A stretch of DNA of 64,000 nt from Psilocybe cubensis. Its lineage: Eukaryota. The DNA is taken from assembly GCA_017499595.2 (NCBI GenBank), contig CM039000.1, forward strand, positions 2,108,001-2,172,000. Reading direction: 5' to 3'. This document shows positions 41,856 to 64,000 of this stretch, in pieces. The number at the start of each line of letters is the position of its first letter. Positions within the stretch are counted from its first letter, which is position 1. The translations under genes and the position numbers were made by a program. The notes beneath the pieces were generated by a model. It saw only the letters and a list, made by a program, of their open reading frames with translations, did no database searches and had not been told where the DNA came from.

Positions 41856-42058
41856 CTCGCATGCCCGAGGCATGGTGTTCATGGTATCATCTGGAATACA
41901 ACTTCCAGATCGCAGTTTGATGTAAGCCAATTGGACAGGAATGCTGCTTAAGCCGTCCGTTCGAGTAGTATTTGGCCAGATCACTGAGGAGACCATACGC
42001 CAACCTCACTAGAGAATCAGAGCGTTCCTCGTCGAAGGCAGCGGTGAACAAGCTCCAA
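41856..42058 (-). pseudogene. KAP95: Captured C-terminal fragment of importin beta-1 (Kap95)
   Basis: Across frameshifts it reads LELVHRCL/DEERSDSLVRLAYGLLSDLAKYYSNGRLKQ/AFLSNWLTS/LRSGSCIPDDTMNTMPRACE, matching the last HEAT repeats (GLLGDLA...TMRWARE). Confidence 0.7.
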
Positions 42059-42260
42059 CTTAAGTAGTCGAGCACGCCAAAGATGTCGCTGAGCGTCCTA
42101 GTGAACTGCGTCGTGATGGGCACGACTTTTGCCTGGCGAGGTGACGCACATGGACGACAATGCTCTCGTCTTTTCTGTGCCGCTCCGCCGCGAAACGGAG
42201 GTGAAACAGTTGTAGAAGTAGCCTAAGTGAAGTGGCAGCCAACCAGAGATGTCAGTAGGA

Positions 42261-43536
42261 ATCGTTAGTGTTCGGGATAGGAGATGGGCTATACTATGTA
42301 AGTTACTACAGAAAATTAGGTAGACAGAACGAAACATACCTGTGTAGAACAAGAGGAAGGAAATGGTGAAACGAACGACTTGAGTGAGAATCGTGTGCGT
42401 CTAATCGCATGGTTAGCAAACGGCGGGTACACTGGAGTTGCGACTTACCAGACATGCTTCGAAACTTTTGCGATGTCTTGTTCGCTGACCTGTATCTGCG
42501 CTGAATGACTGACCCAATATACAACACTGTGCAGAAAATTGTGTTACTTACGGCGAGCGTAGAGATCTCATACGTGCTTAACATCTGTGTTGGCACTTCG
42601 ATTACACCTCACGCACAATATCATTCGGTCCCCATTTCGCTCCCTGTAGTAGTATTTGTATTATTTACATGGTACACTACGCTAGACTGCCTACATGGAT
42701 AGCAGCGCTACTCGGTCTATATGTGCTACTTCACCCGCTAGATGAGCATGGTTGGAACAGAAGAAGAAGAAAGCGTGAGAATATGGCCAGCACGCCAACA
42801 AGTACCGCAGAAGTTCGATGCCGCTCATGCCGTCGCCAAATTGGTGATGCGCGTGATTGGTGGCACGGCATCAGCGGCATCAAACTTCTGTCCTGTATCA
42901 TGGCGATTTTGTGACGGTGTGACGCCTTTCCACCTCTCTCTCAACACTCACTCCTATGAAGCACGTCGTACGTAGAGATGGTTCGCATACGAGCTTACTG
43001 TAGTAGTAGCACTTTAGTGTAGACTCTAATACCATAAACTTAGCTAGCTGCGTACTCTAGTAATACAATTTTAGTTCAAGTGACATAGACCCGGCTTGGA
43101 AGGGCAGAGGAAATAGTCGGGTGAGCGACACAGAACGAGGAGGAACTACAATTCATTTGGATAGTGAATTACGCAGAAACATAGGTGCGAATCGTATTTT
43201 TATTACTATCAGGCAGGAAACACAAGCCAAGAACACCTTCTACAGCACACCCGCCGCCTCTTCGCCTGCCAGACCCGTATTCGAGCGTCACAAACATAGG
43301 TGAGGAATCATCTTTGCTATCAGTGCAGGAAACATATTCTACAGCACATGTGCCGCCTCATTGCTTTACAGACCTCACTTATTCAACGACGCACCCACCT
43401 ACATTCAAGAATTGAACGTTGAATGCTGCCATAACTTTATGTTTTGTACGACGCTGCCTACTGTAAGCACCCGATCTGCGAGGTACCCTCTTTGCAGGTT
43501 GCCGTTTTAATTTGGATTTCACGATATCGGGACTTG
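42261..43536 (-). repeat. Module R copy 1, left arm of the 1276-bp near-identical inverted repeat
   Basis: Reverse complement of 59814-61089 (coordinates sum to 103350, mirrored ORFs are identical). I spotted only two mismatches, at ~42267 and ~43474. Weaker similarity continues to ~43586. Confidence 0.97.
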
Positions 43537-44169
43537 TGTAGGATGTGCACATGGCTTCCGTCGACTCTCCTGCTAATGCAACTATATGCAAGTCTATTCT
43601 CATCTGACACGAGTAACGTAAATATCTCATTTACCCCCCCCCCCCCCCCCGTTGCTCTATTGAACCCCACAATTGGGATGACAGCCAGCGCTTTCACATG
43701 TTATTTACAACATCCTGATTTAATCAGGGGCTGCTAGAATTTTCGCTCATTCCGCACCTCGACTCGAGCCATATTTTTGAGAAGTAAGTTCAACCTTACA
43801 CGCGTGTAGGCAACGCTCGTGTCCTTTCTGCCTCCGTACTAGTCTCTTGTTTGGTAAAGACCAATTTTTCCATTGCTCCTCTTGCGTGTTATCATTCTGT
43901 CCTCGTTTCATAGGGACTACATCTAGTATGTAGACTACATGTTCGACGCCGCTCATGCCGTCGCTTGATTGGTGATTGCGCCAGCATCACATGTCGCCCA
44001 ATTATCTTATCTTATCGCTGTCAGAATAGACAAAACAGCAAGAGATCCCTTAAGACTGCCGGCGCAGCGCGATGGCAGGCGCAGAGCGAGACCTGTACTC
44101 GGATAATCCAAGGTGGCTTTACAATACGGATTGGTTTAACGGGCAGCCTATGATCAGATCAGAGTGGTG

Positions 44170-45570
44170 AAAGTGTCAAAATGAGTGAAGGCGTTAACAG
44201 CCGTGATTCATACGAGTTCTGAGAACACACCCCCGAGATTGTGTGGTTCAGCAAAGAAACAAAAAGATGATTGAGATATCTGGATATGAAGAGCTGTTTG
44301 AATTGCACCAATGCTAACGGAAGGCCACAACATATGTGCTTGTGGGACTCGATGAGAGCCATGAGCAATTCACATAAGATAAACACAGTCCGGCTCGATA
44401 TGGTGCAATCCAATTAAAACAGCACCTGCAAAGGGGGTACCTCCTAGACAGAATGCTTATCGTAAGAAGCATCGCAGAAAAAAATATGGCAGCGTTCTGT
44501 GAGTGTGGCGTCGTTTATTAAGTGACGTCTGTCAGGCGACGAGGCGGCGCATATAGAATATGTTTTCCATACTAGTGATAGCAAGATGATTCTCACCTAT
44601 GTTTCTGTGTAATTATGTGACCTCGAATGAAGGACTGGTGGGAGAAGAGGCGGCGCGTATGCTAGAACATGTTTTTGGTTTATCTTCTCTGTACTGATAG
44701 CAAAAGATGATTCTCACCTATGCTTTTGCATAATTCACCAGCACATGAATTGTCATGTTCACCGGTCTTTGAATTAAAGTTATTATGGTGTTAAAATCTA
44801 CGTTAAAGTATCCCTACCGCTAAGCTAAATATTTGAATCGAATTTACATTCGACCCGCCGCATTGGAGAGTGGGGGTTGTCAGAGAGGAAGAAAGGCGTC
44901 ACACCGTCACAAAATCGCCCTGATACAGCACAGAAGTTCGATGCCGCTCAAGCCGTCGCAACATTGGTGATGTGCGTGATTGGTGGCACGGCATGAGCGG
45001 CATCGAACTTCTGCGGTACATGTTGGAGAGCTGGACATATTCCCACGGTTTTCCCTTCTTTCCTGCGCACCATCCTGGCCACGACGTTCGGCGGGGCTGG
45101 TGAACCTGAACCTGTCAAAGCAGCACGTTGAGATTGAGTAGCGTAGCAATTTATGTACATGGACTAGCGTAGTGTGCAATGTATATAGTACTAGATCAGA
45201 GGAAATATTCTGCTACGAGATGAGGACGGTGACGCGTCAGAGGCATGGGGATCATATAGACTCTACCACCCGGTGCGATGTCTAGCGTACGCCCTGGTTT
45301 TGTAGGAGGTATGATGCTGCACATTTGGTCAGTTATCCACACAGATCCACCTTTAGTGAACAGAACATCTCTTGGTTGGTGAGTCGCAACTCCAGTCTAC
45401 CCTTCAATAGCAAAGCACACTGACTGCTTGCGGACCGTCCCGACCGTCCCAAGGAAAATTACAGACTGCTTGCTGAGCGTCCCTGGAAAAACTACACTCA
45501 CTTATTTCTTACCGAAGGTGCTCGTTGCACCGTCTGCTTCGTCTTGCTTCACTTAGGTATATTCGGTACA
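44170..45570 (+). repeat. Module R copy 2, diverged; inverted relative to copy 1 and direct relative to copy 3
   Basis: Collinear blocks shared with copy 3: acctgcaaag.gggtacctc, gatagcaa.gatgatt.ctcacctatg (twice), aaaggcgtcacaccgtcacaaaatcgcc, the 83-nt hairpin and gt.agtcgcaactccagt. Confidence 0.85.
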
Positions 45571-45767
45571 CTCTACATGCAATTTCTTACAACTATAAAC
45601 TTAGATTGAGTGCGTCGCAGCAAAGGAGGCCACAGGGCAGCTCTTAGCACCCACAAGACAGCTCACCTCCTTCCTTATGTTTTTACTCCAAGGTAAGCGT
45701 TCATCTCATAGCCGTTTATTAGCTGAAATTTATTGTTTCCGTAACAGTACTGCCTAATCCCTACTGT

Positions 45768-46647
45768 CTATTCTGCATCATTGACTCCTGCGATGTTGGC
45801 AAGGGCAGCTCGAACCCGAGCGCTTTCCCTCCTCCCCTCGACACGACGATGTGCCTCCGCCCTATATTTCAGCTTCAACTTCAACACGCTATGAACTGGC
45901 CAACATTTATCGTAATCCCTGAGAACCGGCCAACGCCTAGTTGCCTACCACGTGTGTCAGCCTTGCTTTTGAGTAGTAAAACAAACTGGTAATTACCTCT
46001 TGACATATTGCTTCAATTTTTTCCTTTTTCTGAGATCTGTAGCTTTTACTCATATCCAGCGACCTCCTTGCTTCTCGGGTGATGTATCCCTACGGACAAA
46101 ATCAAGGCATCAGTCAAGTATGGTGAGCCACTATTGATTTACATACCACCATATCTCCTATATCTTCCTCAGACCAGTGGAAGTCGTCCCTCAGGACTGT
46201 CTGGATATTAAACCCACCACTTCCCCGACGGCCAGGTTCTCCCTTTGGCTTCTTATACATTTCGCCTCCTGGGACCGGCGAAGTCACGCGAGGATGAGAA
46301 GGCCCCGCCACTTGGAGGATCATAGCGGGATCAATGGGTTGCCCAGGATCGACCTGCACATGAGTTGCTGGTGTTGCAATTGAAGGCCCGATTGGAGGGA
46401 CAGGTACGGTGTCCTGGCCTGAAGGTCCCTCTGCCTGTATGAGCTCTTCAGGCCCTGGAGCTGCGACGGATGATGGCTGTGGCGCGGCTCCACGCGGAAT
46501 GGCGTGTCGCTGTAGCAGCTCTGGAGTCCATTGGATACGAGGGGTAATCTTAGGTAGAGGTTCTTGACTGGGTAAGAGGAATTCGATCCGGGGAGTGATG
46601 AGGGGGAGATGACGAATGTATTCGTGTGAAGGATGCGAGGATGACAT
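45768..46647 (-). CDS. Uncharacterised protein, 3 exons, with a KPKGEPGR.GSGGFN / CWPV motif family
   Basis: MSSSHPSHEY...KKPKGEPGRRGSGGFNIQ...W...|GYITREARRSLDMSKSYRSQ...AICQE|ATRRWPVLRDYDKCWPVHSVLKLKLKY...* splices in frame. I recall this motif from repetitive agaric hypothetical proteins. Confidence 0.75.
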
Positions 46648-47231
46648 GGTATATGTCGAGGAAAGATTGTGCGTTTTTCTTTTCATTCACTATTTGTAGT
46701 TTCGTATTCGTCGCTCAATCATCCCCTTTGTTTATTCTATGTAACGTCTCGCTCTTCCGCAGACACTCATCCTCAGTGTGCACGTCAAATCTCAGTGCAC
46801 GTCAAATACGCACCAATTGTTTCGCAAAGTCGCTCTGCTAGTGTCAAAGATTGTTTGATCGATATCTTCTCACCGTAGGGGTAACCATTGATCGCTACCT
46901 ATCATTCTTTCATCAATATCTATTTCAGGGAGGGCTCAAGAAAGCATCATTTGTCTCTACAATGAGTGAAAACCCCAATGACAATATTATCAGACATTGA
47001 GCCTTAGTTATACAAAATGAGCCTTAGTTCCAATATGAATACGGTTTGGCAAAAACGTGACAAAAAGGCGACACGACTCAAAGGGAGATGTTATCTTTGA
47101 CGAGTTATCTGTGACTCGTCAATGGCCAGTGCCAAGGGTGTCACAATGACTTCCGGCGGCGCTGGCGGTAAAGTACTTAAAGAGCAGGAGTTATCACCAG
47201 TCGTAAACGATTCAAACCATCAGCACCCGCC

Positions 47232-49061
47232 ATGGCAAGTGTAAGCTTTGCATCCTGTAGTTGTCGCCCGCTGACATGTTCGATAGGAGAATTTCGCAAT
47301 ATTCAGAACATATAAGTTGCCATCCATTCTGCCTATCAACACTTTATTGTTCTCAGAGGACGCTAGACTCTTAATATCTGGCGGTGAGTCTTTTCCTATC
47401 GTCAGTGTTAGGTAATCTTTAATAAGAACAATATCATACTTAGGAGATGACGAGACGGTATATGTCTTGGACACAAAAACGGGGGAATGCATTCAAACTC
47501 TTGAGGATGACAACTGGGGACAAATCACCACAGTTGTCTGGGGACAACAGGAGTTACCCAACAGAGAAAACGGCGTTGTGTTATGCATTGGCACGGGGAG
47601 AGGGTGTTTGGCGTTGGTTGCGCTAGACTATGATGCCACCGAAGTACTTCTCTTTCTCGTTTCAACTTCCTGTGTCCTTACATTCTGTATATCATTCCTT
47701 AGCCATTCCCAGTAGGCGCGAACACATCTCCTGTATTTGCGTTCAATGACTCTGTCGAGAAAATGGCTTTCGACAAGCTCAACAATCGATTAGCCGTCAC
47801 AAGTCACTCCGGTGAGATCAAGGTTTTTGCAGTAAACAACAGTAAGTACTCTTGTCAATCGCCCTAGCACTCAAACCACACGAATATGGTACTCCTAGCT
47901 TCCTTGAGGTTATTGTGGGCCGATAATATTGGCAAAGTGATCACCAGCGGCCTATTCTTTTTTGGGGGGTCGAATCAAAGCCTCTTGACCATCGGGTTGG
48001 AGACATCGGAAATGTGCGTTGATGTTTCTGTTTCCTTGCAATATATTCACGAATTTCTACCACAGGAAGTGCCTCGATGCTTCAAAGAGAGGTCCGCCAT
48101 TATGGACGAAACATTTGATTGGTGGGATGTACGTGCTACTTTATGGAAACCCTCCATTATTTTGATAAATTTTTGAATATTTGACAGTGGAAGCGCGTCT
48201 CTGTCCAGCGATGAAACGTTGCTTCTTGTAGACAACCTTGCTACCGGTAACTTCGACGTCTATCAGATCGCCGACAACTCCCCTCTTCGTTCCCTGCCAA
48301 TAGGCTCGACCCGTCGATTTTCCAAGCAATGCGCCTTCTTTGAAGGTTCGAAAATAGCAGTTTGCGGCAGTGACACCAATAAAGTTTTCATTGTGGATGT
48401 CGCAAACAACTATGTTGTTCAGACACTGACAACATGTCGAGGTTCGACTTTTCGCTTACCCCCGCATTTCAGTTTATTAATTTGTGGACTTAGGTACTTA
48501 CATGACACAAACGGTCTGTGTTACTCCATCGTCATCGCGCAACGTCTTTGTCGCCGCCGCATGTCGTGGCTATGTATATATCTGGGAAAAATCAACTCCT
48601 CAAGTCCAGGTAAATGTTCGCGCAGATGACCCTCCCCCTTCGAGGTACCGTCGCGTTGGATCCGCTATTTTGCCTTACCTGGGATTTGCTGTCGCTGGTA
48701 CTGTCGGCCATTGGTTACCACACGCCTGGAAGGTGAGCAGCTTACAATCCTTTTGGCATTTGACAAACTAATGATATTCAAGTTGGGCCAAGACATAATC
48801 ATGAAGACTGCTGATTATCTCATCCAGAATGGCGCAGATAGGACGATGGAACTTCCAAGAGAAGCTGTTGACAAAATCTTCGAGATGGCGGCAGCGGCCT
48901 CGAGGGCTTTGGATATGTCGTCGGCACTGGTGTCGTCGAGGACTCTCGACATGGCTGCTATTGCTACAACAACATACACGGCTGCTACTGCGACTGCTAC
49001 GATGACATCCCCTTCTGCTACCTCTCTTTTTGACATGGCAGCAGCAGCGGCTGGCCATTAG
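47232..49061 (+). CDS. WD40-repeat protein with a C-terminal hydrophobic segment, multi-exon
   Basis: INTLLFSEDARLLISGGDDETVYVLDTKTGECIQTL, DSVEKMAFD...LAVTSHSGEIKVF, IAVCGSDTNKVFIVDV, GYVYIWEK, all joined by GT-AG introns. Confidence 0.8.
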
Positions 49062-49209
49062 AATCTGCATCTGCGTATCCTTCTAATTTGAAACGTGCCC
49101 TAGATTTCTTTTGTACATTTATGATATCGGATAATGACATTTTGCTGAGTAACCTGACTACATGCATCGAAGCTATGATCTACACAGTTTTCCATTATGT
49201 TCTCAGTGG

Positions 49210-52200
49210 TCAAAGAATTTGCCTATCTACAGGTCGGAGTCGGGATAAAGATACACATACAGCGACGTCTCTATCTTCCCATGGGATGATACATTTGGCA
49301 AAGTGTCCTTCTACAGCTGAAAAAGGAAGGACTTCGAGGATATCTTGGACGTCGGTTCCCCATAGTTTGGCACGAAAATGAACCCACGGGATATAAGGAT
49401 CGTATTTGACCCCCGCTTCTTGGTATCGATTAACCACAAACCATATATCATCCCTAAGTACTTTTTTAGGAAACTTGAGGACATTCTTGATACGGTAGGG
49501 CACATTTGACGCATTGAGGACCCCGCTATTGCCTTCATGTACGTCCCAAGATGTATAAGATATCCGACCAACGCGATAACGGTTTGTATACATTGCCCGC
49601 GCGGGCACGGTTGTCACACCATACCGTAAAAATGCCCGAGTAATGTCCATCTTTAACACCACCGCACGTCGATCATCGTATGGGATGGCTTCTTCTTGAA
49701 GATCTTCTTCGCTTTCCTCGTCGTCTGTCTCAGTGTCATCGTCGGCCTCAGCATTTGCGACATCGATTGTCTCTGCTTCTCCTGCGAGTATGTACCGTCC
49801 TTGGGGCATCACCAACTTGCGAAAGATCGGCCAACAGTCCCGAATAGCTTGTGGACATCCTGGTCTTTGAAAAATTGCCATAAGTTTGGACCTTCTGTGC
49901 CAGGAAGTCGCAATTGTTTCCTCGTACTCGCCTACTATAGATCAGTAACCATGAAAGAGCAGGCAACAGGTAAAGCAAATTACCTTGCTTGTAATTTGTG
50001 GGAATTCTTTGCAGCATCCCAATCATACGTTCGAAGGGAAACGTCCACCAACCATGAACAGGCCCATATTCGATGATAAACTCCCTCATATGCATAGCCA
50101 TATGATGATTAGGAACACACTGGTAGCTTGGAAACAGCCTTGAAAGCTCGGAACGGTATTGTACCATCAAATTCAGGTATTCATTGGCCATAGCTGGTGA
50201 TGCGACCCGGGAAGTGATGACAGATATGGCCTCAAAAAGAAGCATCGTGAGGCGCAAAAGTTCTCGACGTGTTTGGGCAGGTTTCGAATGGTCAATTCCC
50301 GACCATATTCGGATGAGGGTAACTGGGATGTAAAGTGCTGCCGCAATGCGCCATTGGTCTGATTTGAGTTTTCCACTCTTTGCGGACATCGACCAGGGTA
50401 ACGACGAGACCCATGACGGTTTTACCATAGCTGCAATGTCTCGTCGGATGGATTTCATGTCTTCTGCTGTAAGTATCTTTCCCTGCTTGCCATCCACTTC
50501 TGAAGTAGCCTGGCTTGACTGTGACTGGCCGAAATTTTTAGTTGTTAGAAGAATTGAAAAATTTAACAACGTACGGATCTTTCTTTACGCTATTCACCGC
50601 GTATTAAACTATCAGATTGATGTTGAGGTAACGACGATGCAGACGTACCCATTGAACAAGCATTTGGGCCAGATCTTCTTTCTTGACTCGCATCATACCA
50701 TTTAACGTGTCCCGGCCACGATTGGTGATGGTAGAGGGTATACACCCCAGATGTTTACCAACAAAAACAAGGGCTTCTGCTGCGGTCTTCTTTGCCAACT
50801 CGTTTGCTACGTCGGCATCTTCGATTGGAAGAGGCTCTGCCAACCATTTTCTGATGATGCGTATTCCTTTTTGACCAGACTCTGAGGTTGGCAAAGGATT
50901 ACTTTCATTGCCCTCAATGTTTTGTAATATAACGCTATCGCTCGATATAGGTGTTTGTTGTTTCTTCTTCTGCTTGGGTAAATCAGAACCGTCACCGAGA
51001 ATGTGCTGAAAATGCTCTTTGATGAGTCCAAGAAAAAGGTTATGCATCGGGTCTACAACAAGGCTCATGGTTGGCCGATAATAGGGCAATCGATGAAATT
51101 CTGACGTGCGCAATCCGGATTTGTCGAAAAGGCTTGCAGCGGCCTTTTCGGAGGGGGCTGCCTGGTATTTCCAGGCACCATCTCGACATTCGTCATCGGT
51201 GCGCCATGTCCATTTTTCATAATCGAAGTTGTTGAATGTATGCACAGTTTTACTACACCAGCACATCGAACAGAAATATTCCTGATTGTATGAAGAAAAT
51301 CCACCAGCCTTCCGTGCTGCAGGAAGATCGGCGATGATTGCAAGAAGAGCACAAAGAATAATGCGCCCCATAGCGTAAAGAGCGGTGCGCGTAAAAAAAA
51401 CACCCACCCAAAACAGCAGGAAAGTGTCAACAATAGGGCGGAAGTATGGGTTTGCTGCTTCTAGACTGGGTTCATTGGGACCCGGAATAATACCCGCGAG
51501 AAAGATGTTTTCAGGTTGATATCGAGTAGTTATGGGAAGGTTGAGGCATGTTAATGCGATAACTCCAATTGAAATCTTCTTTCCAGCCGTAAGATTACGC
51601 AAAGGATTAAAGAAATCAAAGCCGAGTGAAAATAGATAACGTCCAGTAGTTTCATTTCCGGATACACCGAAAAATTTCTTATCGCATCCCTTGAAGTTAC
51701 GGATGCTGGAAGACTGAAAAATATCGTCCATGCGCCCATTTTCTTGAACAGGTTCGAACGTTTTCTTCCAAGCACCGTCCATTGCTTCCTCGTATCCTCG
51801 ACGCGATAACATGCCACCAAGCCAGTCCTGGAAATCGAATGATAGGAAGGGTTTGATGGGTACATTAATGGTCTTATTGCTGTATCTCTTTGGCCGGACA
51901 AGAAGTTCCCCACAACGATTACCGAACTTCCGGGCATTGCATCGTTCGCGATAGGTAGAAATATCGTCCTCTAGGGTTGGCTTGTAGATTTCATTGCACT
52001 TTGGACAAGCGGCATACACGATGAACTTCGAATCAATGTCAAAACGCTTGATTGCCGCTCGAACGTCTAGAGGAAACGAACGAAGAACTTGCTCGAGCCA
52101 ACGAGGAAGGATTTTGTCGACAAAGATAGCCTCTCCCGTTCTTTGAGCGATATATTCGCACATGGAAAAGACAAAATAGCATCCACGTCGAGGAAACCTC

Positions 52201-53043
52201 AATATAGCGTAGCAAGAAACAACCATAAGGTTGATCATCTGCATCGCGTCAATTATCCATGGGGGTAGCCAAGGCATACTGTATGCATAGGGAAGGAAGG
52301 GAAGGAAGTGGTGCCCTAGGGTCGATAGTTGATAAATAGTTCATCGAATACAAAGTGAAAAATAAACATGCTCGCTCACTTGAATCGTATAAATTAGGTA
52401 CGCTATCCTGAATAGAAACTCGCTGGCGAGATCTCTTCGTTTGCCTCTCCTTCCATGTTGCCTCTACACGGTCTACATCTTCATTAAGTCGCTCGATATT
52501 TTGGTGTGCATCATGTCGCAAAGATTTGATCGAGGCTTCCTTGCGCAAAGGACCGGATTTCGTAAAGTCTAAATCTCTCGATGCGTTGGAATTAAGAGCT
52601 CGTACTTCATGGCAAAGTTGAATTGCCTTATCAATTTCCCCATTGCTGAAATATTTCTCTCCTGAGATGTCAATGGTGTTGATTTGTTGGGCACGAAGTC
52701 TGGTATTGTCTAGAATATCTGCAATCAGAGCCACGATTTTTTTCTTCTGTTCGTGCTTGTACTGCACTTCCTTTTCCTTGATCGTCTCGGTGTCCGGGTC
52801 CTGAACAGATAAAAGTTGCATTGCTTTCTCCAAGGTGGTTTCGACCTTCTCCATGGCCCTTTGCTGCTCAAGGATCGCCCGTGATTCAAGATTCCTCTTC
52901 ATCTGACCCACGCTTTCCTCGTGTTGGTGCTTTTTATATGTAGATGGCGACAATTGAACACCTGGCTGTCCTGTGACAGGATCGCGTTTCGCGCCGCACC
53001 CATGCACAGTGCACAGGCAAAACTTGGCTTTCCAAACCGGCAT
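49210..53043 (-). CDS. CACTA/CMC-EnSpm (Tnp2/Transposase_21-like) DDE transposase, about 4 exons, apparently intact
   Basis: YAACPKC, GFDFFNP (D), GIIPGPNEPS, RPIVD, IADLPAARKAGGF (D), FCSMC (CxxC), VDPMHNLFLG, KLKSDQW, PNHHMAMH, YGPVHGWWTFPFERMIG (E). The four ORF pieces splice in frame. Confidence 0.93.
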
Positions 53044-53571
53044 AGGTCTGTCGAATCAACCAGAATATCGATATCGATGTGGTAACGGTTAAGCAATGAT
53101 AAGAGAAATTTTACCACATGAGAAATTATTATGCGATCACGCAGCTGCAGCTGCAGCGGAGGCAATGACCCGGAGGAACTCGATAAGGTGATGTCGCCGA
53201 AACGCCGAGGCATAACAAAGGGACTGAGCGATGAAAGACTAGCGTTTTCTTTTAAAGCGCTTGTTCAGGAACTTTCTTCATTACCCTCACCCAAACACCC
53301 AGCACAACTGAGTCTAGTCGTCCAACTAAACTATGTCTCAACCTTCCAGGAGTCGTAGTAACAGCAAATCATCCGTAACAGGGGCTACCCCAATATATAC
53401 CGCGATGCTTTCCCGCGAACACTATATAAAGGCTGTTAGCGCGAGATCAAGAAAGAACGCAGGGGTAAGTTGTCTAAGGATTGATTGAGGCGCATTTTTC
53501 AATGATACATTACCTTCTGTTAGAAGTCTGCTTCGAGGCAACGCCGGTCTCCTGAAGCAGGGGACGCTAGC

Positions 53572-54892
53572 ATGGTGGCAGGGCCATCGAGATTCCAGGA
53601 AGTTGATGATGACGACATGGACCAATCCTTTGAATCCAATTCAACTGCGTTAGTCACCAACACCTTGACGTCCAACAAAACCCAGGCTGCGGTGCGCTTG
53701 AGTATAATGATTTATGTATTTCAATCTGACAGTACATACTTTCACCAGGGGAGTATTCAAAGGGCCTACACGGCCCCAATGGTCTCGTCCTTTGCCGAGA
53801 ACCGTGAGGTTTCCACCGAAGGTCCATCGACAGAGATTGCGAATGTGTCGGTGGATGCTGGGAGAGACAATCTTATGACCAGACGTCCTCCTATACAGGT
53901 GGCCAACGTGAATGCTATATTAGCCATACTCCCAGGCCGGAATGAATTGTTTCCCGCCGTTCAACATAACCGATCTATTGCCAATGGATCGTATGCAGCA
54001 TCCACCAATGTCCAGAATGATCGAGGCATAACCAATCAACAAAGCGGAGTGGATGCTGGGATAGACCAAGTGATCATTAGTCAAGTACGCCACGATCATA
54101 CGCCGTCGACTTTAGCACTAATCAACTACTTTCGATGAACAGGATGAATATGACAGGCTGAAGTCCACTTCAAATGCTGCAAGGTTGAGAAGTGATGATA
54201 TAATAGCGACCGTAAGAATAATGAAATGATTCATAAGGAGGCGACTTACATCTGCATCCATTTTCCAGGTTAGAGAAGTTCAAGCCGACAGGGAGCGCAT
54301 TGCCGCCCTTGAGCGAGGTCTAACCGAGCAGGGAGAGACGTTTAAATGGGTTAGTTTGGTTTCTTCCCTCACATAACCTTATGACGTTTATCCGAGACCG
54401 TCACACTTTTTAAACAATTATATTATAGGAAATTGACAAAGCGAGCAAGATGTATACTGAGCTCTTGAAGGAGAAGGTGGCCCAGGAAAACCTGTACCTT
54501 GAAACGAAGAGGGTAAATTTACAATATGACCGATATCGATAATGTTAATGACAAATTTAAATAGGAAAATGACAGGTTGAAGGAGCTGGAAGAGACAGTA
54601 CTTGGATTCGCAAAATGCACAATTTGCTATGAATTTATGGAGCAAATTTGCGTGTAAGCCTTTTCGAGAACTGTGTTTACAGATCAAAGTGACCTCAGAA
54701 CATTATCACAGCTTTGCTTGTGGTCATGTTTGCTGCAACGATTGCAGGACAAAGCTCGAGTTATTTGACACACTGAGGTGCTGCTTTGTATGCCGCACAT
54801 TTGTTCCAGATGAACAACCCCTCTCGCGTTACCATCCCCTCAGCCAGATTCTGTCCAATGTAAAGGATAAGGCTAATGCAGAGGGTGTTTAG
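53572..54892 (+). CDS. RING-finger (C3HC4) protein with a coiled coil, multi-exon
   Basis: Spliced C-terminus DSQKCTICYEFMEQ...FACGHVCCNDC...CCFVCR, preceded by ENDRLKELEET and RERIAALERGL. Confidence 0.8.
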
Positions 54893-55036
54893 AGTAATCC
54901 TACTCCCTCTGCACGCTGCAGCTTCTGTTCGAGGTGATCATATAAGTATATAGCAAATGAAGAATGTCATGTTTCATACCAGAATTTATATTATCTTCAC
55001 AAGACGAGGTGATGGTAGAGAAATACCAAAAACAGG

Positions 55037-58000
55037 TCACAGTATCTTTTTCTTGTACTGGTCTTTTAACTGAGTCATAACATTGGAGTTGAGGTCTCTG
55101 TCTTTCTTGGACTCGGGAACTGAACACAGGAAATCCGTGCTGAGTATAAATCGCTCGCCAGTTAAAACGTCTACACGATCTTTAGATCGGGTGACTACAG
55201 CGACCAAGACAGTTGGATTATCCGAGGTGCCTTCATGATGAATGCGACGAACGAATTTCCCGCAATGTTCCCCCTTGATAACCACTAGAGGCCCATTGTC
55301 ATGTATTCGATTTGCATACTTCGGAGTGACCCAAGCGGGGTCCACCATAGTCCATGAACTGTACTTTTTGCACCTGAGTACGAGGTTGTTTGCATCCCAA
55401 ACCGTTGAGGCGACTAATGTTTTATTGCTGAACTGTCCGCCGTTGACTACCACATTCAGGCTGATGTCCACCAGTTTGGGGTTTAAGAGAACATGTTCGC
55501 ACACAGAAGAGGAAGTCGTATGACAGTTTGTTTCAGATGAGGAGGAAACAGATGTAGAGACGTCTGATAACGCAAGACTTGTTGGCGAATGAGCAGTTGG
55601 GTCAGGTGTCCTTGAGGAGGGGTCCCAAGCTGGAGTGATAGATTGCGGTGTACCGATGGGTGTCCTTGAGGAAGGATCCCAGGCTGGAGTTGCAGTGGGT
55701 TCTGAGTACATCGGTGTGCCGCTCGCTGACGCAATCGTTTGCGGTACGCCAGGGAGAACGCGGACGTGCTTCATGGAAGACTTAGGTATAGGACGGAAAA
55801 ATTTTGGCCCAGGATCAAGGAAAAGAACGAGCTCATTGAACGTCCTTGCGTACAAGTTAGACAGAGGGTACATGCAATGACAACACACTTACGAAAGTTC
55901 GACGACATCGTCATAGTCCACAACGATTGTTTGGAACGGTGCAAAGGGATTAAAACGGGTGAGTTGAATAACGAGCTGCAGTCCGGCGTTGTCTGTATGA
56001 TGAAGGACGTCTTTGATTCGTCCAGTCTCACCCTTGCGTGGGTGAAGATGCTTCTGTATAATGACCTCTAAACCAGTCCATGGGTGTCTTAAAAACTTGG
56101 TGTGGACTGGGTCTGACTCCGACAATAATGTCACATCGACAAGAGGTAGGGGCTCAGTAAATGAAGTGTCCAAGAGATTGACGTGTACCGCAAAATGCTG
56201 TTGAAAGGTATAGCCACGTTAAGAGAAAAACCGGTGAATATGTCAAGCTGCAAATTTACTCACTTCCACAATCTCAACCTTGTTATCATCTCCTACCCCA
56301 GAATTAAACTGGTTAGATGCTGCTGTTGTACTGACCACAGCGCCCTGGTTGTACGACTCCTGAGCTGCTGTTGGTTTTCCTACTCCTGTGACACACGAAC
56401 TCCCTCCCGGCATCGACATTTCTTCTTCATCTAACGTTGCTGCTGATTCATCCAAAGTTAGAGCGATATCCGAATGCACCATTATACCCCCTGGCATCAT
56501 TTGCGCTTCTACCGCCGTCCCCAGATCTGTCTCCGCCGAACCTTTTCTCAGATCATCGTTCCCTGTCGGCACGGGATATTGTTCTTTTCCGTTGGTGGGC
56601 GTCGAAGATGTTTCAGCATTTGTTTCCACAATGGAAATGCGACCATGCACCGAACTTTTCGTTATTAGTGCATGGTCTCCATGGATTCCAACGACCCAAC
56701 CTCTGTGATCGAAATAGGGGCCGCTCACAACTCGAACGAATTGCCCGATTTTTGGTGACTTGAGAATGTCTAGCCATGTTCCCCTAACACTGTAGCGGAT
56801 TTCACGTTCACCTTCGATTGTTGATTGTTCTGCTTCAACGTCGTATGTGTCCAGCTTTTTCAGCACTGCAGGTTCCCACTTTGCAGACCGATTCGCAACG
56901 TCGGGTGTACGAAAAAGAACCTCCTCTTCCAGTCCTAAGCACCATTCCCGAGGACGTGGCATACGCGCTCGCATTATGTCGGGATGATTGGTGCTCCTAA
57001 ACATGGAGAAGTGGGAATACGGAATATCCATGACGGAATTTGCGATGGAGGTATAGTCGAAATCCTTTTCCAACAGTCCATGGTCAAACTTGAGAAGTCC
57101 AAGCGTGTATGATCCATCCGCATTGCGAATAATGGGAGTAGAAATGAGTTTGCGGGCTTCTTCAGGGTCGAAAAGTTTTGCTGGGGGTACTAGTACCGAT
57201 GACTTTCTCTTTTGTGACTTTGCAGATTGCGAATTTAGCCGAGGAATGAGAAGAACCTGAGCGCCCCAGGAAAAAGTCGCTGAAATCAGTCCAACGTCTC
57301 CTTTGTATATGCCTTTCTTAACCAAAACCCAGGTCCCAACCTCAAAATCCTTCTTGACATCCCTCATCGTAAGAAGTTCGTGCTGATGGTTCCGATCCAC
57401 TATTTCGCGCTTGACTCCAAGGTGGTTACGAAGGATTCCGGGCGTGGACAAGAGCAGATTCACGAGGGCTGGATCCATGATACCTTCAACGTAGATACTT
57501 CCGCGTATAGAGCCGCGAGTAAATGCGGAACGAATATGGTGGATCTCCCTTGCGGTCTGGAGAAGGGATAGGACAGCTGCATCCTCAGAGCCGATCTGCA
57601 AAAGTTGATAGAAAAATAATCAAGGGATAGGTATTCAGACTTACCCGACATCCAACCCTCCAGAGAGGATAGTCATTCTCAAGCGGAAGACGCGCAATCT
57701 TCTCCTGGAGCATGGTTATCCTATCTTCCTCCTCCAAACGTATAACCGGACGTGGTTGACGAGGGCCCTTTGCTTGAGCCTCCAGGCGAGCCAGTAGTTG
57801 GTTAAATGAATCCTCCTCGCTGTCATCTTCTGGCCTATGGAACGCCATAGAGCCTATGTGATCTTTCCCGTCCACTTCCGCTCCGTCGTTAATGAAGGCA
57901 TCTGTAAAGACAGTCAAATCAAGTCTATCGCAACATTCTGAACAGCTCGCCTTCAAGGTCCCGTTCTGCAGACGTAAGCTGCTCATCGTCAGAAAGCTCT

Positions 58001-58123
58001 CCATCATCAGCTACCTGTGCCTCCGTGTCCAGAAATTGGCGGACGTTCCTCATAACCTAGGGAGAAAAAATCATGAGTATCAAGATGCTTTGAACAGAAA
58101 TCAAGCAAGCCTACCCGCTTCAT
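55037..58123 (-). CDS. Spt5/NusG-like transcription elongation factor paralogue (acidic N-terminus, NGN, multiple KOW, CTR-like repeats), about 6 exons, ~930 aa
   Basis: RQFLDTEAQVADD...FIND; LWRVGCR|IGSED...IRSAFTRGSIRGSIYVEG; GTWVLVKKGIYKGDVG..LLIPRL..PPAKLFD; KIGQFVRVVSGPY; HPRKGETGRIKDV; TPAWDPSSRTP twice; VVIKGEHCGKFV. The exons splice in frame. Confidence 0.88.
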
Positions 58124-58329
58124 CCTTTGGACTGTGTCGTTCGATGGAAATGAACAAATTTAATTAGATGATCAGTTACCACTCTGACTTAGGAATCGGA
58201 ATCTATATGACGTTGGTGTGCTCAGTAAGTTTTTTTCATCTTCATTACGATGGTGATCTCATTTTCATTTTCCAACTATCCAAATCTATCACTGAACTAC
58301 GTGTAATAGTACATATTCTCGTTCCGGTT

Positions 58330-58520
58330 CAACGCCAATGCAGAATCCGTGGCGTATCTTACCTGGAATGACAGCCCCTGAGCAACGAGGAGACAAAACG
58401 GTATGGTGGAGAGAAGAAGAAAAAGAGCGTGGGAATGGGTGGGGGGCTGTAGAAATGGCGCAGAAGTTCGATGCCGCAAATGCCGAAACATATCACGTGT
58501 TAATGTTCCTCGGGCATCCC
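58330..58520 (-). repeat. Module R copy 4, a short diverged fragment upstream of the Spt5-like gene
   Basis: atggtggagagaagaagaaaaagagcgtgggaat...cgcagaagttcgatgccgc matches 42748-42825. Confidence 0.7.
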
Positions 58521-59379
58521 GGGTGTGGATGAGGGTTCAAAACATTGAGAGCTGAGCGTCGTGCTGAAACTTATCAATGCGGAAGCGCTCATGTGAACAC
58601 TTAAGCTCGTATCCTGTTAAAAATGCATGGTGAAACCTATTGTAGGGAACCTAGACGATGGAGCGACACGAAGTAGTCGGCTCGTCCTGAATGAAAAATT
58701 CATAGAAAATGGACATAATAAATTATTGACATGACCGTTGAGACAACTCATCCAGAATAAAATTTAGGGGCAGAACCAAGGGGCACACCGTTAGTTCCAT
58801 CAAAAACCAAGGCACAAGTTATGTATGGCGTACCCAGGTCTATGCTACCGCGAAACTAAGTATTTCGTTGCTTGCATATTCAAAAGTACGTACTACAGTT
58901 TACAAACAGTGGGAAATCAGCTACTCTACAAGAGTCTCAGGTGTTTGTATTTCCGAAGGAAAATAAGCACATTCAAATAATCTTGTAGTGAGCGGCGACC
59001 TTAGCATTTTGTGAGCCCAATAATTCGAGTATCAACGGTAGATATATTTGCGTGGAAAACGGTAAAAACAGACGAGGCCGTACTTCCAAGGACCCGCAGA
59101 AATAAGTTAAGGAGAACATCCTGGTTCATTGATCCAATCATGTAGATAGGGTCACCATGACACTGTAATAGAAGAAGCGCGGTTGTAAAAATACAGGGCC
59201 AAGTCCTCAATAACGAATATGTGAAACATACAAATTAGGCACCTCGTCGTCGAAGTCGACAGATTTGCGGGCCACGTTGCGGTGTCTACCACAACCTTTG
59301 CGATAATAAACATGGATAAGCTCGTACAGTTAGTGAGCAATGCAGAGCGGTGATGAAGCTCTACACATAATATGTCACT

Positions 59380-59709
59380 GAACATCTCGTGTTCGGGAGA
59401 GTAAATTCGGCTTACAGTACGTGTAAAACAATACCTCACGGCGATTCGAGTTCGAGGGTGAAGTGGGCGCTGGGCAATGGCCGTGTTAGATTGTTGAACG
59501 AGATTTTAAACCACCCACTGGCAGGACAAAATGGGGTTGGAAAGTCACCGAAGATTATTATATCAAGTAGAGCTTGGGTTAATAAATTTAGTATATCAAT
59601 TGCAGATATTGATGAAGCGACATACTTCATAGATTGAAGAGAATTATTAGACGGGAACATCTCGCGTGTTCGAGAGAGTAAATTTGGCTTACAGTACGTG
59701 TAAAACAAT
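59380..59709. repeat. Direct repeat of ~54 bp (59380-59432 and 59655-59709)
   Basis: gaacatctcg(cg)tgttcg(g/a)gagagtaaatt(c/t)ggcttacagtacgtgtaaaacaat occurs twice. Confidence 0.92.
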
Positions 59710-59813
59710 TGAGACTGGTGCCGCTCGAATACCTGATAGAAAAAAGACGGAGCCAATCTATAGTTGCATAAGCAGGAGACTCGACGGGAGCCATGTGCAA
59801 ATCCTGTATATTC

Positions 59814-61089
59814 CAAGTCCCGATATCGTGAAATCCAAATTAAAACGGCAACCTGCAAAGAGGGTACCTCGCAGACCGGGTGCTTACAGTAGGCAGCGTC
59901 GTACAAAACATAAAGTTATGGCAGCATTCAACGTTCAATTCTTGAATGTAGGTGGGTGCGTCGTTGAATAAGTGAGGTCTGTAAAGCAATGAGGCGGCAC
60001 ATGTGCTGTAGAATATGTTTCCTGCACTGATAGCAAAGATGATTCCTCACCTATGTTTGTGACGCTCGAATACGGGTCTGGCAGGCGAAGAGGCGGCGGG
60101 TGTGCTGTAGAAGGTGTTCTTGGCTTGTGTTTCCTGCCTGATAGTAATAAAAATACGATTCGCACCTATGTTTCTGCGTAATTCACTATCCAAATGAATT
60201 GTAGTTCCTCCTCGTTCTGTGTCGCTCACCCGACTATTTCCTCTGCCCTTCCAAGCCGGGTCTATGTCACTTGAACTAAAATTGTATTACTAGAGTACGC
60301 AGCTAGCTAAGTTTATGGTATTAGAGTCTACACTAAAGTGCTACTACTACAGTAAGCTCGTATGCGAACCATCTCTACGTACGACGTGCTTCATAGGAGT
60401 GAGTGTTGAGAGAGAGGTGGAAAGGCGTCACACCGTCACAAAATCGCCATGATACAGGACAGAAGTTTGATGCCGCTGATGCCGTGCCACCAATCACGCG
60501 CATCACCAATTTGGCGACGGCATGAGCGGCATCGAACTTCTGCGGTACTTGTTGGCGTGCTGGCCATATTCTCACGCTTTCTTCTTCTTCTGTTCCAACC
60601 ATGCTCATCTAGCGGGTGAAGTAGCACATATAGACCGAGTAGCGCTGCTATCCATGTAGGCAGTCTAGCGTAGTGTACCATGTAAATAATACAAATACTA
60701 CTACAGGGAGCGAAATGGGGACCGAATGATATTGTGCGTGAGGTGTAATCGAAGTGCCAACACAGATGTTAAGCACGTATGAGATCTCTACGCTCGCCGT
60801 AAGTAACACAATTTTCTGCACAGTGTTGTATATTGGGTCAGTCATTCAGCGCAGATACAGGTCAGCGAACAAGACATCGCAAAAGTTTCGAAGCATGTCT
60901 GGTAAGTCGCAACTCCAGTGTACCCGCCGTTTGCTAACCATGCGATTAGACGCACACGATTCTCACTCAAGTCGTTCGTTTCACCATTTCCTTCCTCTTG
61001 TTCTACACAGGTATGTTTCGTTCTGTCTACCTAATTTTCTGTAGTAACTTACATAGTATAGCCCATCTCCTATCCCGAACACCAACGAT
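59814..61089 (+). repeat. Module R copy 3, right arm of the 1276-bp inverted repeat
   Basis: Reverse complement of 42261-43536. Confidence 0.97.
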
Positions 61090-63007: not shown

Positions 63008-64000
63008 ATGGACGACGCTTCGATGGAAAATCTCTCTCTGCCGGGAGCCTTCAACAGCTCCCCTACAGAGCAAATGGATATCACCTCCAGCGACGACGTC
63101 ACCCGCAATCATCCAGGACCGTCCCAGACTCCCCAATCCCCTACAGAGCAAATGGATATCACCTCCAGCGACGACGACGCCCGCAATCATCCAGGACCGT
63201 CCCAGACTCCCCAATTACAGTCCCAGATTCTCAAACCACAAGAATCGGGCAAGCGAAAAAGGAGTGATCATGAAGAGATATCGTCGAGAAAGTTAATTGC
63301 AGTCGAGCCTGAGTATCTTCAAGAACTCGAGTTCGCGGTAACTCACTTCAATTGCCGTCTCAAATTTTAACTCAACATACCGTTGTATTCAAGGTTGATG
63401 AGTTGACTAAGAAGCTCAAATCGAAGGATAAAGAAATAAAGCGCCTTCAGAGCATAGAGCCGAGCGTCAACGATTTGAAAGATGCTGAAATTCGACACCT
63501 TCGCGTTGTAGAGCAAAAGGTTGAGACTTTGATTATTGGAAAGATATATGTACTAATAGTAATGTATCATCCAGATATCCAAAGAGAAATCGGCGTCTGA
63601 TGGGGCATATAAGACCTTACAATCCCAATTCGAAGACTATAAACGAGTACGTTTCCCAGGCTTCATGTTATCGTACCTGCGTTTAAGCATCGAACAGGAC
63701 GTGGATCGCCAACATAAAGAAGCATCCCGTGCTAAAGAGCACGAAATGTCTGAGGTATGTAGTCTACCAAAAATCAGAAGCATCAGCCTCTCATTGCTAG
63801 CTGTTTTCAAGCTGGAAGCAAAGTTCAAACAACAAATCGAAGAACTCCAAATTCATCATGACCGTACGGTGGAGGAATTAAACAAAAAGGTTGAATCCCA
63901 GTCTCTTCAGATTTCATCTCTGGTGGAAGACAGTCTTGAAGAATCAGAAACTGCGAAAATATTGCTAAATGAACCCGATGGAGAGGGGTCCAATATCTTG
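63008..64000 (+). CDS. Coiled-coil protein, multi-exon, runs off the window end
   Basis: MDDASMENL...GKRKR (NLS-like)...ELEFA|VDELTKKLKSKDKEIKRLQ..., with GT-AG introns. Confidence 0.65.
63059..63215 (+). repeat. In-frame 78-bp tandem duplication
   Basis: SPTEQMDITSSDD..RNHPGPSQTPQ is encoded twice with only a few substitutions. Confidence 0.95.

Follow-up and report, generated by a model that had tools for sequence, protein, structure and literature searches.

Results and Discussion

Features of the Locus

The sequence analyzed was a 64,000-nt stretch of Psilocybe cubensis contig CM039000.1 (positions 2,108,001 to 2,172,000), which is referred to below as the window, and its main subject is a repeated 83-nt palindrome that lies in a transposon-rich island close to a gene for an Spt5-like protein. 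Recognisable host genes stop near 37 kb in the window. The island beyond them contains three hairpin-bearing modules of about 1.3 kb, designated L, M and R, and two partial copies, one of which (copy S) belongs to the Spt5-like gene (Table 1). Between L and R lie a transposase gene of the EnSpm/CACTA type and the Spt5-like gene itself.

Table 1. Positions in the window of the cassette copies, their parts and the genes between them.
Feature	Position	Strand	Description
Module L	42261-43586	−	Putative promoter/leader cassette reading leftward; hairpin 42808-42890; inverted pair with R
Truncated copy	43926..43981	+	One arm and half a loop with one CCAAT box; adjoins the structural breakpoint 43865/43866
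Module M	44346-45570	+	Older paralogue of the putative cassette, oriented as R; hairpin 44931-45013, loop inverted relative to the flanks
EnSpm/CACTA-type transposase gene	49210..53264	−	Transposase_21 at 34.9 bits, above the cut-off of 28.6; DUF4218 and Plavaka matched weakly
Spt5-like gene	55037..58056	−	NGN, KOW1 and KOW (Pfam); C-terminal repeat (CTR)-like TPAWDPSSRTP repeats; apparently intact
Copy S	58385..58486	−	Reduced to the near arm and CT-rich tract; some 400 nt upstream of the Spt5-like start codon; nhmmer E 1e-19
Module R	59759-61089	+	Upstream tandem units of about 100 nt, 59976-60183; core 60397-60605; hairpin 60460-60542
Conserved core	60397-60605	+	GGCGTCACACCGTCAC block, palindrome with two CCAAT boxes, ATTCYCACG motif, CT-rich tract
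Module R predicted leader introns	60902-60949 and about 61011-61056	+	Splice signals

Copies of the Palindrome and of the Modules

The three hairpins of the original prediction were all found at their positions, one in each module, and its degenerate half copies were recovered as single-arm matches at 43941 and 58466. The 20-nt arm core GTTCGATGCCGCTCATGCCG gave eight matches at no more than three mismatches in the window, with 0 expected from 100 shuffles, and all eight fell between 42.8 and 60.5 kb. Single-strand folding of the full copies yielded −28 to −36 kcal/mol (z −5.2 to −8.3), and that of the half copies was no better than the folding of shuffled sequences (z +1.67 for copy S at 58466 and −0.76 for the copy at 43941). 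The pattern CCG-N6-CCG, which is CGG-N6-CGG when read from the opposite strand, is common to all arms; its triplets are constant and its spacer is variable. A profile built from the near arm and the downstream core matched L, M, R, S and, weakly, 43941, and nothing else in the 64 kb; in the host-gene part (1-37 kb) it gave nothing below E 0.1.

The two-arm pattern had 0 matches in viral contigs. A degenerate single-arm pattern hit 120 metagenomic loci, which were set aside as chance bacterial matches (average 66% G+C, none with the paired form); each of the 80 loci listed of these 120 had one match.

Modules L and R were 99.0% identical over 1331 nt in the BLAST alignment, with only one mismatch over 42268-43536 and a more diverged inner 50 nt (a 5-nt indel and six mismatches). 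From this near-identity we infer a recent inverted duplication or gene conversion, and because it points to a very recent event L and R are counted as one copy. By sequence comparison there are thus two independent full copies (L/R and M) together with the two partial ones. Module M was 70-75% identical to L/R (BLAST). M and R are homologous through both predicted leader introns, and the similarity stops at the second predicted 3′ splice site or a few bases from it; L and R have 33 further bases in common beyond this end and then diverge.

Tandem units of about 100-120 nt (n = 2) upstream of the core are kept in R (Table 1) and in M (44530-44740). They carry the motifs GAGGCGGCG...TGCTGTAGAA and GATGATTC.CACCTATGTTT and may be sub-repeats of an enhancer-like kind. 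A 48-nt direct repeat (59385-59432 and 59662-59709), the units of which are 94% identical and 277 nt apart, is found in the interval from copy S to module R.

The Conserved Core

Comparison of R with M showed 179 identical positions out of 209 in the core (86%), as against 595 of 1209 (49%) in the rest of the module (Fisher p 1e-24). Along the module the identity was 56% far upstream, 87% in the 63 nt preceding the hairpin, 88.5% in the far arm, 100% in the near arm (26/26), 75% in the 63 nt following the hairpin and 41% in the leader. The 31-nt loop was 32% identical as read directly and 90% identical when reverse-complemented, the loop of M (44957-44987) being inverted relative to its flanks as compared with that of R (60486-60516). 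With the loop flipped, 77 of the 83 hairpin positions agreed versus 102 of the 126 in the core flanks, which is a modest excess (p 0.025). It had been suggested that the arms look better preserved than the rest of the module. The hairpin is indeed modestly ahead of its flanks, but since the core reaches 86% and the remainder only 49%, the conserved unit is the whole core of about 200 nt, flanks included, and not the arms alone.

The three arm differences between R and M all lie in the far, gene-distal arm. None of the 26 arm pairs was changed on both sides and three were changed on one side, a count that comes from two distinct sequences only. The loop of each full copy contains two CCAAT boxes, which lie on the opposite strand in M; the CCAAT density in the window is 2.3 per kb. 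Judged from the alignment, the loop was turned round naturally in one lineage when the two arms recombined.

The cassette is always laid out in one order, with an arm followed by the CT tract and then by splice donors. The pyrimidine-rich tract expected after the hairpin is present, starting about 30 nt downstream, and the intron signals GTAAGT...GCTAAC...TTAG were found at 60902-60949, the end coordinate given earlier (60948) being one base short. The leader exons look non-coding, because the ATG in the leader of R (60896) is absent from M. In L/R and M a frame of 43 codons spans the hairpin on the opposite strand. It was rejected as coding sequence; S does not preserve it, and chance alone would be expected to let it survive.

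Copy S and the Spt5-Like Gene

In copy S the near arm (58486-58459) is followed by the ATTCCCACG motif, the CT-rich tract and a GTAAGA donor; the far arm and the CCAAT loop are missing. Having only one arm and no loop, this copy cannot form the hairpin, as its z score also indicates.

The ATG of the Spt5-like gene (58056-58054) lies three bases past the splice acceptor ...CTCCCTAG (a sequence also read as ...TTTTTTCTCCCTAG), and tblastn with homologues placed the N-terminus of the protein at about 58044. Several non-coding spliced exons had been proposed to precede this ATG. One strong 3′ splice site three bases before it was found, and the several exons are a prediction from splice signals. 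Another predicted intron of the gene, near 57950, seems to begin with GC instead of GT.

Homologues of the protein (n = 38) are 27-44% identical to it. Those with names come from Agaricales, and those in Flammula, Psilocybe and Pholiota are 39-44% identical; these comparisons suggest a family that is evolving fast in Agaricales. The intact-looking paralogue adjoins the EnSpm/CACTA-type transposase gene.

Reads from Other Isolates

Raw DNA reads of one other isolate (run X13) were analyzed at 85% likeness, with depth taken in 667-nt bins, at which resolution small excesses elsewhere would escape. Depth was about 160× in the interior, 270-330× over L and R and 162× over M. Inside the hairpin of M, the sole hairpin checked, it was 97 at position 45005 versus about 160 in the surrounding bins, so that no genome-wide excess was seen at M. 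Variants of intermediate frequency occurred within L/R, loose ends were found at 42944/60406, 43865/43866, 59467 and 61111, and a minority junction of 15 reads (42392|59458) would delete 42393-59457. The loose ends on both sides of 43865/43866 were seen in X13 and in a contig of run X11.

The raised depth, the variants, the loose ends and the junction together point to extra rearranged copies of L/R-type units in the X13 genome, and one extra copy keeps the sequence from 60406 onward, that is, from the start of the conserved core, and diverges upstream. The differing sequence that X13 and the X11 contig show at 43865/43866, at 59467 and at the junction may represent structural polymorphism or extra rearranged copies of the island.

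A Proposed Duplicated Promoter and Leader Cassette

The reading that we favour, to which we give about an even chance, is that of a cassette with a promoter and a 5′ leader, copied before unrelated units in the EnSpm/CACTA-type island. The hairpin would be its upstream palindrome and would act as double-stranded DNA. This reading is suggested by the CCAAT boxes, by a loop that tolerates either orientation, by the constraint on one arm, by the CT-rich tract with the splice signals after it, and by the functional-looking copy S that has no hairpin. The cassette core precedes four transcription-unit-like regions, namely those after L, M and R and the Spt5-like gene, and comparison of the regions downstream of L, M and R revealed no protein similarity in common. 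The portable promoter and leader proposed in the original prediction fits the sequence to the extent that the same core stands ahead of unrelated regions in constant orientation and the M/R homology ends at a predicted 3′ splice site.

Transcription from fungal promoters usually begins at or after CT-rich tracts. In the favoured reading it would likewise start at or after the tract, leaving the palindrome upstream of the RNA, and the predicted leader introns would be spliced. The arms and the CCAAT boxes would be bound by transcription factors, which by analogy might be a CCAAT-binding complex and a CGG-reading factor of the zinc-cluster type. The cassette would have been copied in front of several unrelated transcription units, and the half copies would stem from breakage inside the palindrome. 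In common with those fungal RNA polymerase II promoters that have CCAAT boxes and CT-rich initiator tracts, the cassette has two ACCAAT(C/T) boxes ahead of its CT-rich tract, after which comes a leader with predicted introns, and the ability of CCAAT boxes to work in both orientations is consistent with the flip of the loop. It departs from such promoters in the 26-bp inverted arms on either side of the boxes and in the apparent reuse of the entire unit by neighbouring genes that are unrelated.

Several points weigh against this interpretation. Where transcripts start, which way they run and how they are spliced is deduced from the sequence, and the conservation statistics rest on a single pair, as there are only two independent full copies here. 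The near-perfect 26-bp arms far exceed the length needed for a transcription-factor site, and the invariance of the CCG triplets over six distinct arms is a weak indication, with a chance estimate of about 0.12 by our own calculation. Downstream of M and R the genes are putative, the open reading frame (ORF) from the leader ATG of R stopping after 37 codons, and the annotated-like protein to the left of L begins about 1.1 kb from the hairpin. Finally, L and R bracket the transposase region as a long inverted repeat, which would also fit transposon ends.

Possible Subterminal Repeats of a CACTA-Type Element

The last point leads to the main rival, which is compatible with a promoter cassette and not mutually exclusive with it. 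The arms would be subterminal repeats of a CACTA-type element, and their 26-nt motif would be bound by an element-encoded protein in the role of TnpA (the Spt5 paralogue or the product of another ORF), which would steer both transposition and the promoters. We regard this as unlikely, though the least unlikely of the alternatives. Support for it comes from En/Spm, where the subterminal repeats and the 5′ promoter region are bound by TNPA, which regulates its own element positively and negatively; accessory proteins differ among CACTA families (PMC2613891). At the present locus too, the repeats would coincide with a promoter, and another protein encoded by the element is a candidate regulator. 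The Transposase_21 gene, of tnp2 type and scoring above its cut-off, is likewise nearby, enclosed by the long inverted pair L/R. The short motif is reiterated in direct and inverted orientation, as shown by the eight arm matches on both strands, with tandem sub-repeats upstream.

The ends of such an element were sought with the terminal features of fungal EnSpm and Plavaka elements given in PMC12730594, where the termini are 5′-CAC..GTG-3′ flanked by 3-bp target duplications. Subterminal repeats would be expected no more than a few hundred bases from such termini. Scans for terminal inverted repeats starting from CATCA, TGT, CACTA or CAC matched only inside the L/R pair, so that no termini were found, and no 3-bp target duplication was seen. 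In this the locus differs from En/Spm, as it does in the L and R cassettes, which read outward, in M and S, which lie well inside the interval, and in the length of the motif, which is 26 nt and paired into one long palindrome. As for the protein, NGN-KOW proteins are not known for sequence-specific binding of double-stranded DNA, and a Pfam search of 36 ORFs of the island yielded no DNA-binding domain assignable to the arms.

Two candidate ends were discarded. The CACTA/TAGTG motif at 42675/60675 (flanks GTA/TAC) was ruled out, since the M/R homology continues across it, and the 13-nt TTCATCAATATCT pair at 46909/59604 was at chance level (E 1.6).

It may further be supposed that the genes of a giant fungal EnSpm/CACTA-type element, its Spt5 paralogue among them, share one palindromic operator-promoter that is read by a factor from the element, and so make up a private transcription regulon. 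We consider this proposal improbable. A limited search found no literature linking Spt5 to fungal transposases or to Psilocybe.

Other Readings of the Palindrome

The remaining readings, apart from hairpin loading, are possible at low likelihood. It is improbable that the palindrome has no function of its own and is a by-product of duplication, its arms being kept alike by intramolecular conversion. The identity of L and R shows that conversion or duplication has occurred very recently, the flip of the loop shows that the arms recombine, and there are only two independent full copies from which to argue. Conversion between the arms of one copy, however, leaves unexplained the 86% identity of the core across copies (49% elsewhere), and it accounts neither for the conserved unpaired flanks (87% and 75%) nor for the near arm kept in S.

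Less credible still is that the hairpin is an independent element of the foldback type or a miniature inverted-repeat transposable element (MITE), or a hairpin precursor of small RNA, present by chance in these promoters. An 83-nt unit with 26-bp terminal inverted arms has the shape of a MITE, and M gave a sub-threshold microRNA-precursor-like match in Rfam (25.8 bits, E 0.32, where the gathering score is 89), no match being obtained in that database at the gathering score. Unlike such elements, the hairpins have no target-site duplication (the flanks GGA/CGG and GCA/CGG are homologous between copies on both sides), no solitary copy without the cassette flanks occurs in the window, the X13 reads gave no depth excess at the M hairpin, and the half copies break within the unit.

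The least supported reading, and a very improbable one, is that the polymerase receives the Spt5 paralogue at the hairpin, which would form either in the RNA or in the non-template strand, in the manner of the bacterial NusG paralogue RfaH at the non-template-strand hairpin of ops, followed by autoregulation. The resemblance lies in a NusG/Spt5-family paralogue, apparently intact, that co-occurs on a mobile-element-like locus with a repeated cis element capable of strong predicted single-strand folds in its full copies. The idea of a loading site with autoregulation, which the original prediction put forward as a hypothesis, is not supported, as the copy at the Spt5-like gene is one-armed and the hairpin-capable form is therefore not at every presumed unit. 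Whereas ops is a short sequence within the transcribed leader and works in single-stranded form, the element described here is probably upstream of the start site and probably not transcribed, because it precedes the CT-rich tract. In the two distinct sequences compared, the arms show no compensatory changes, and the far arm seems freer to change than the near one; the constraint would be on the sequence of one arm and not on pairing. The loop with its CCAAT boxes has been inverted and the unit has persisted. Moreover, a leader RNA with a 26-bp stem would be an obstacle to scanning ribosomes. It is possible, and compatible with the evidence against hairpin loading, that an element-encoded protein binds the arms as double-stranded DNA.

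Other Sequences of the Island

To the left of L, one ORF is 100% identical to a protein assigned by its source to Psilocybe cubensis. Just outside L, the ORF fragment 41887-42222 (− strand) has a weak match to the importin-beta C-terminal TPR region (E 5e-5) and resembles a piece of a host gene that was captured or duplicated. The presumed RNA run X15 contained a single 84-nt piece with 11 mismatches at 41945-42028, outside the modules, which is a paralogue and uninformative on expression. An ORF between the transposase and the Spt5-like gene (54581-54892, + strand) has a RING-like cysteine pattern (zf-RING_5, E 0.037), and downstream of R a + strand ORF contains a 78-nt tandem duplication (63059-63214, 97% identical).

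Implications

The inversion of the loop and the half copies illustrate neatly, and in a natural setting, how unstable a palindrome can be. Should the cassette work as a promoter, it would show how the copying of a core of about 200 nt lets a transposon-rich island subject genes that are unrelated to a single control element. The private regulon, if true, would be a eukaryotic counterpart of self-regulation of the TnpA type, with an NGN-KOW protein in the accessory slot. The more unusual item of the locus is the Spt5 paralogue beside a CACTA-type transposase, and the cassette offers a concrete cis element with which a possible local action of this protein could be tested.

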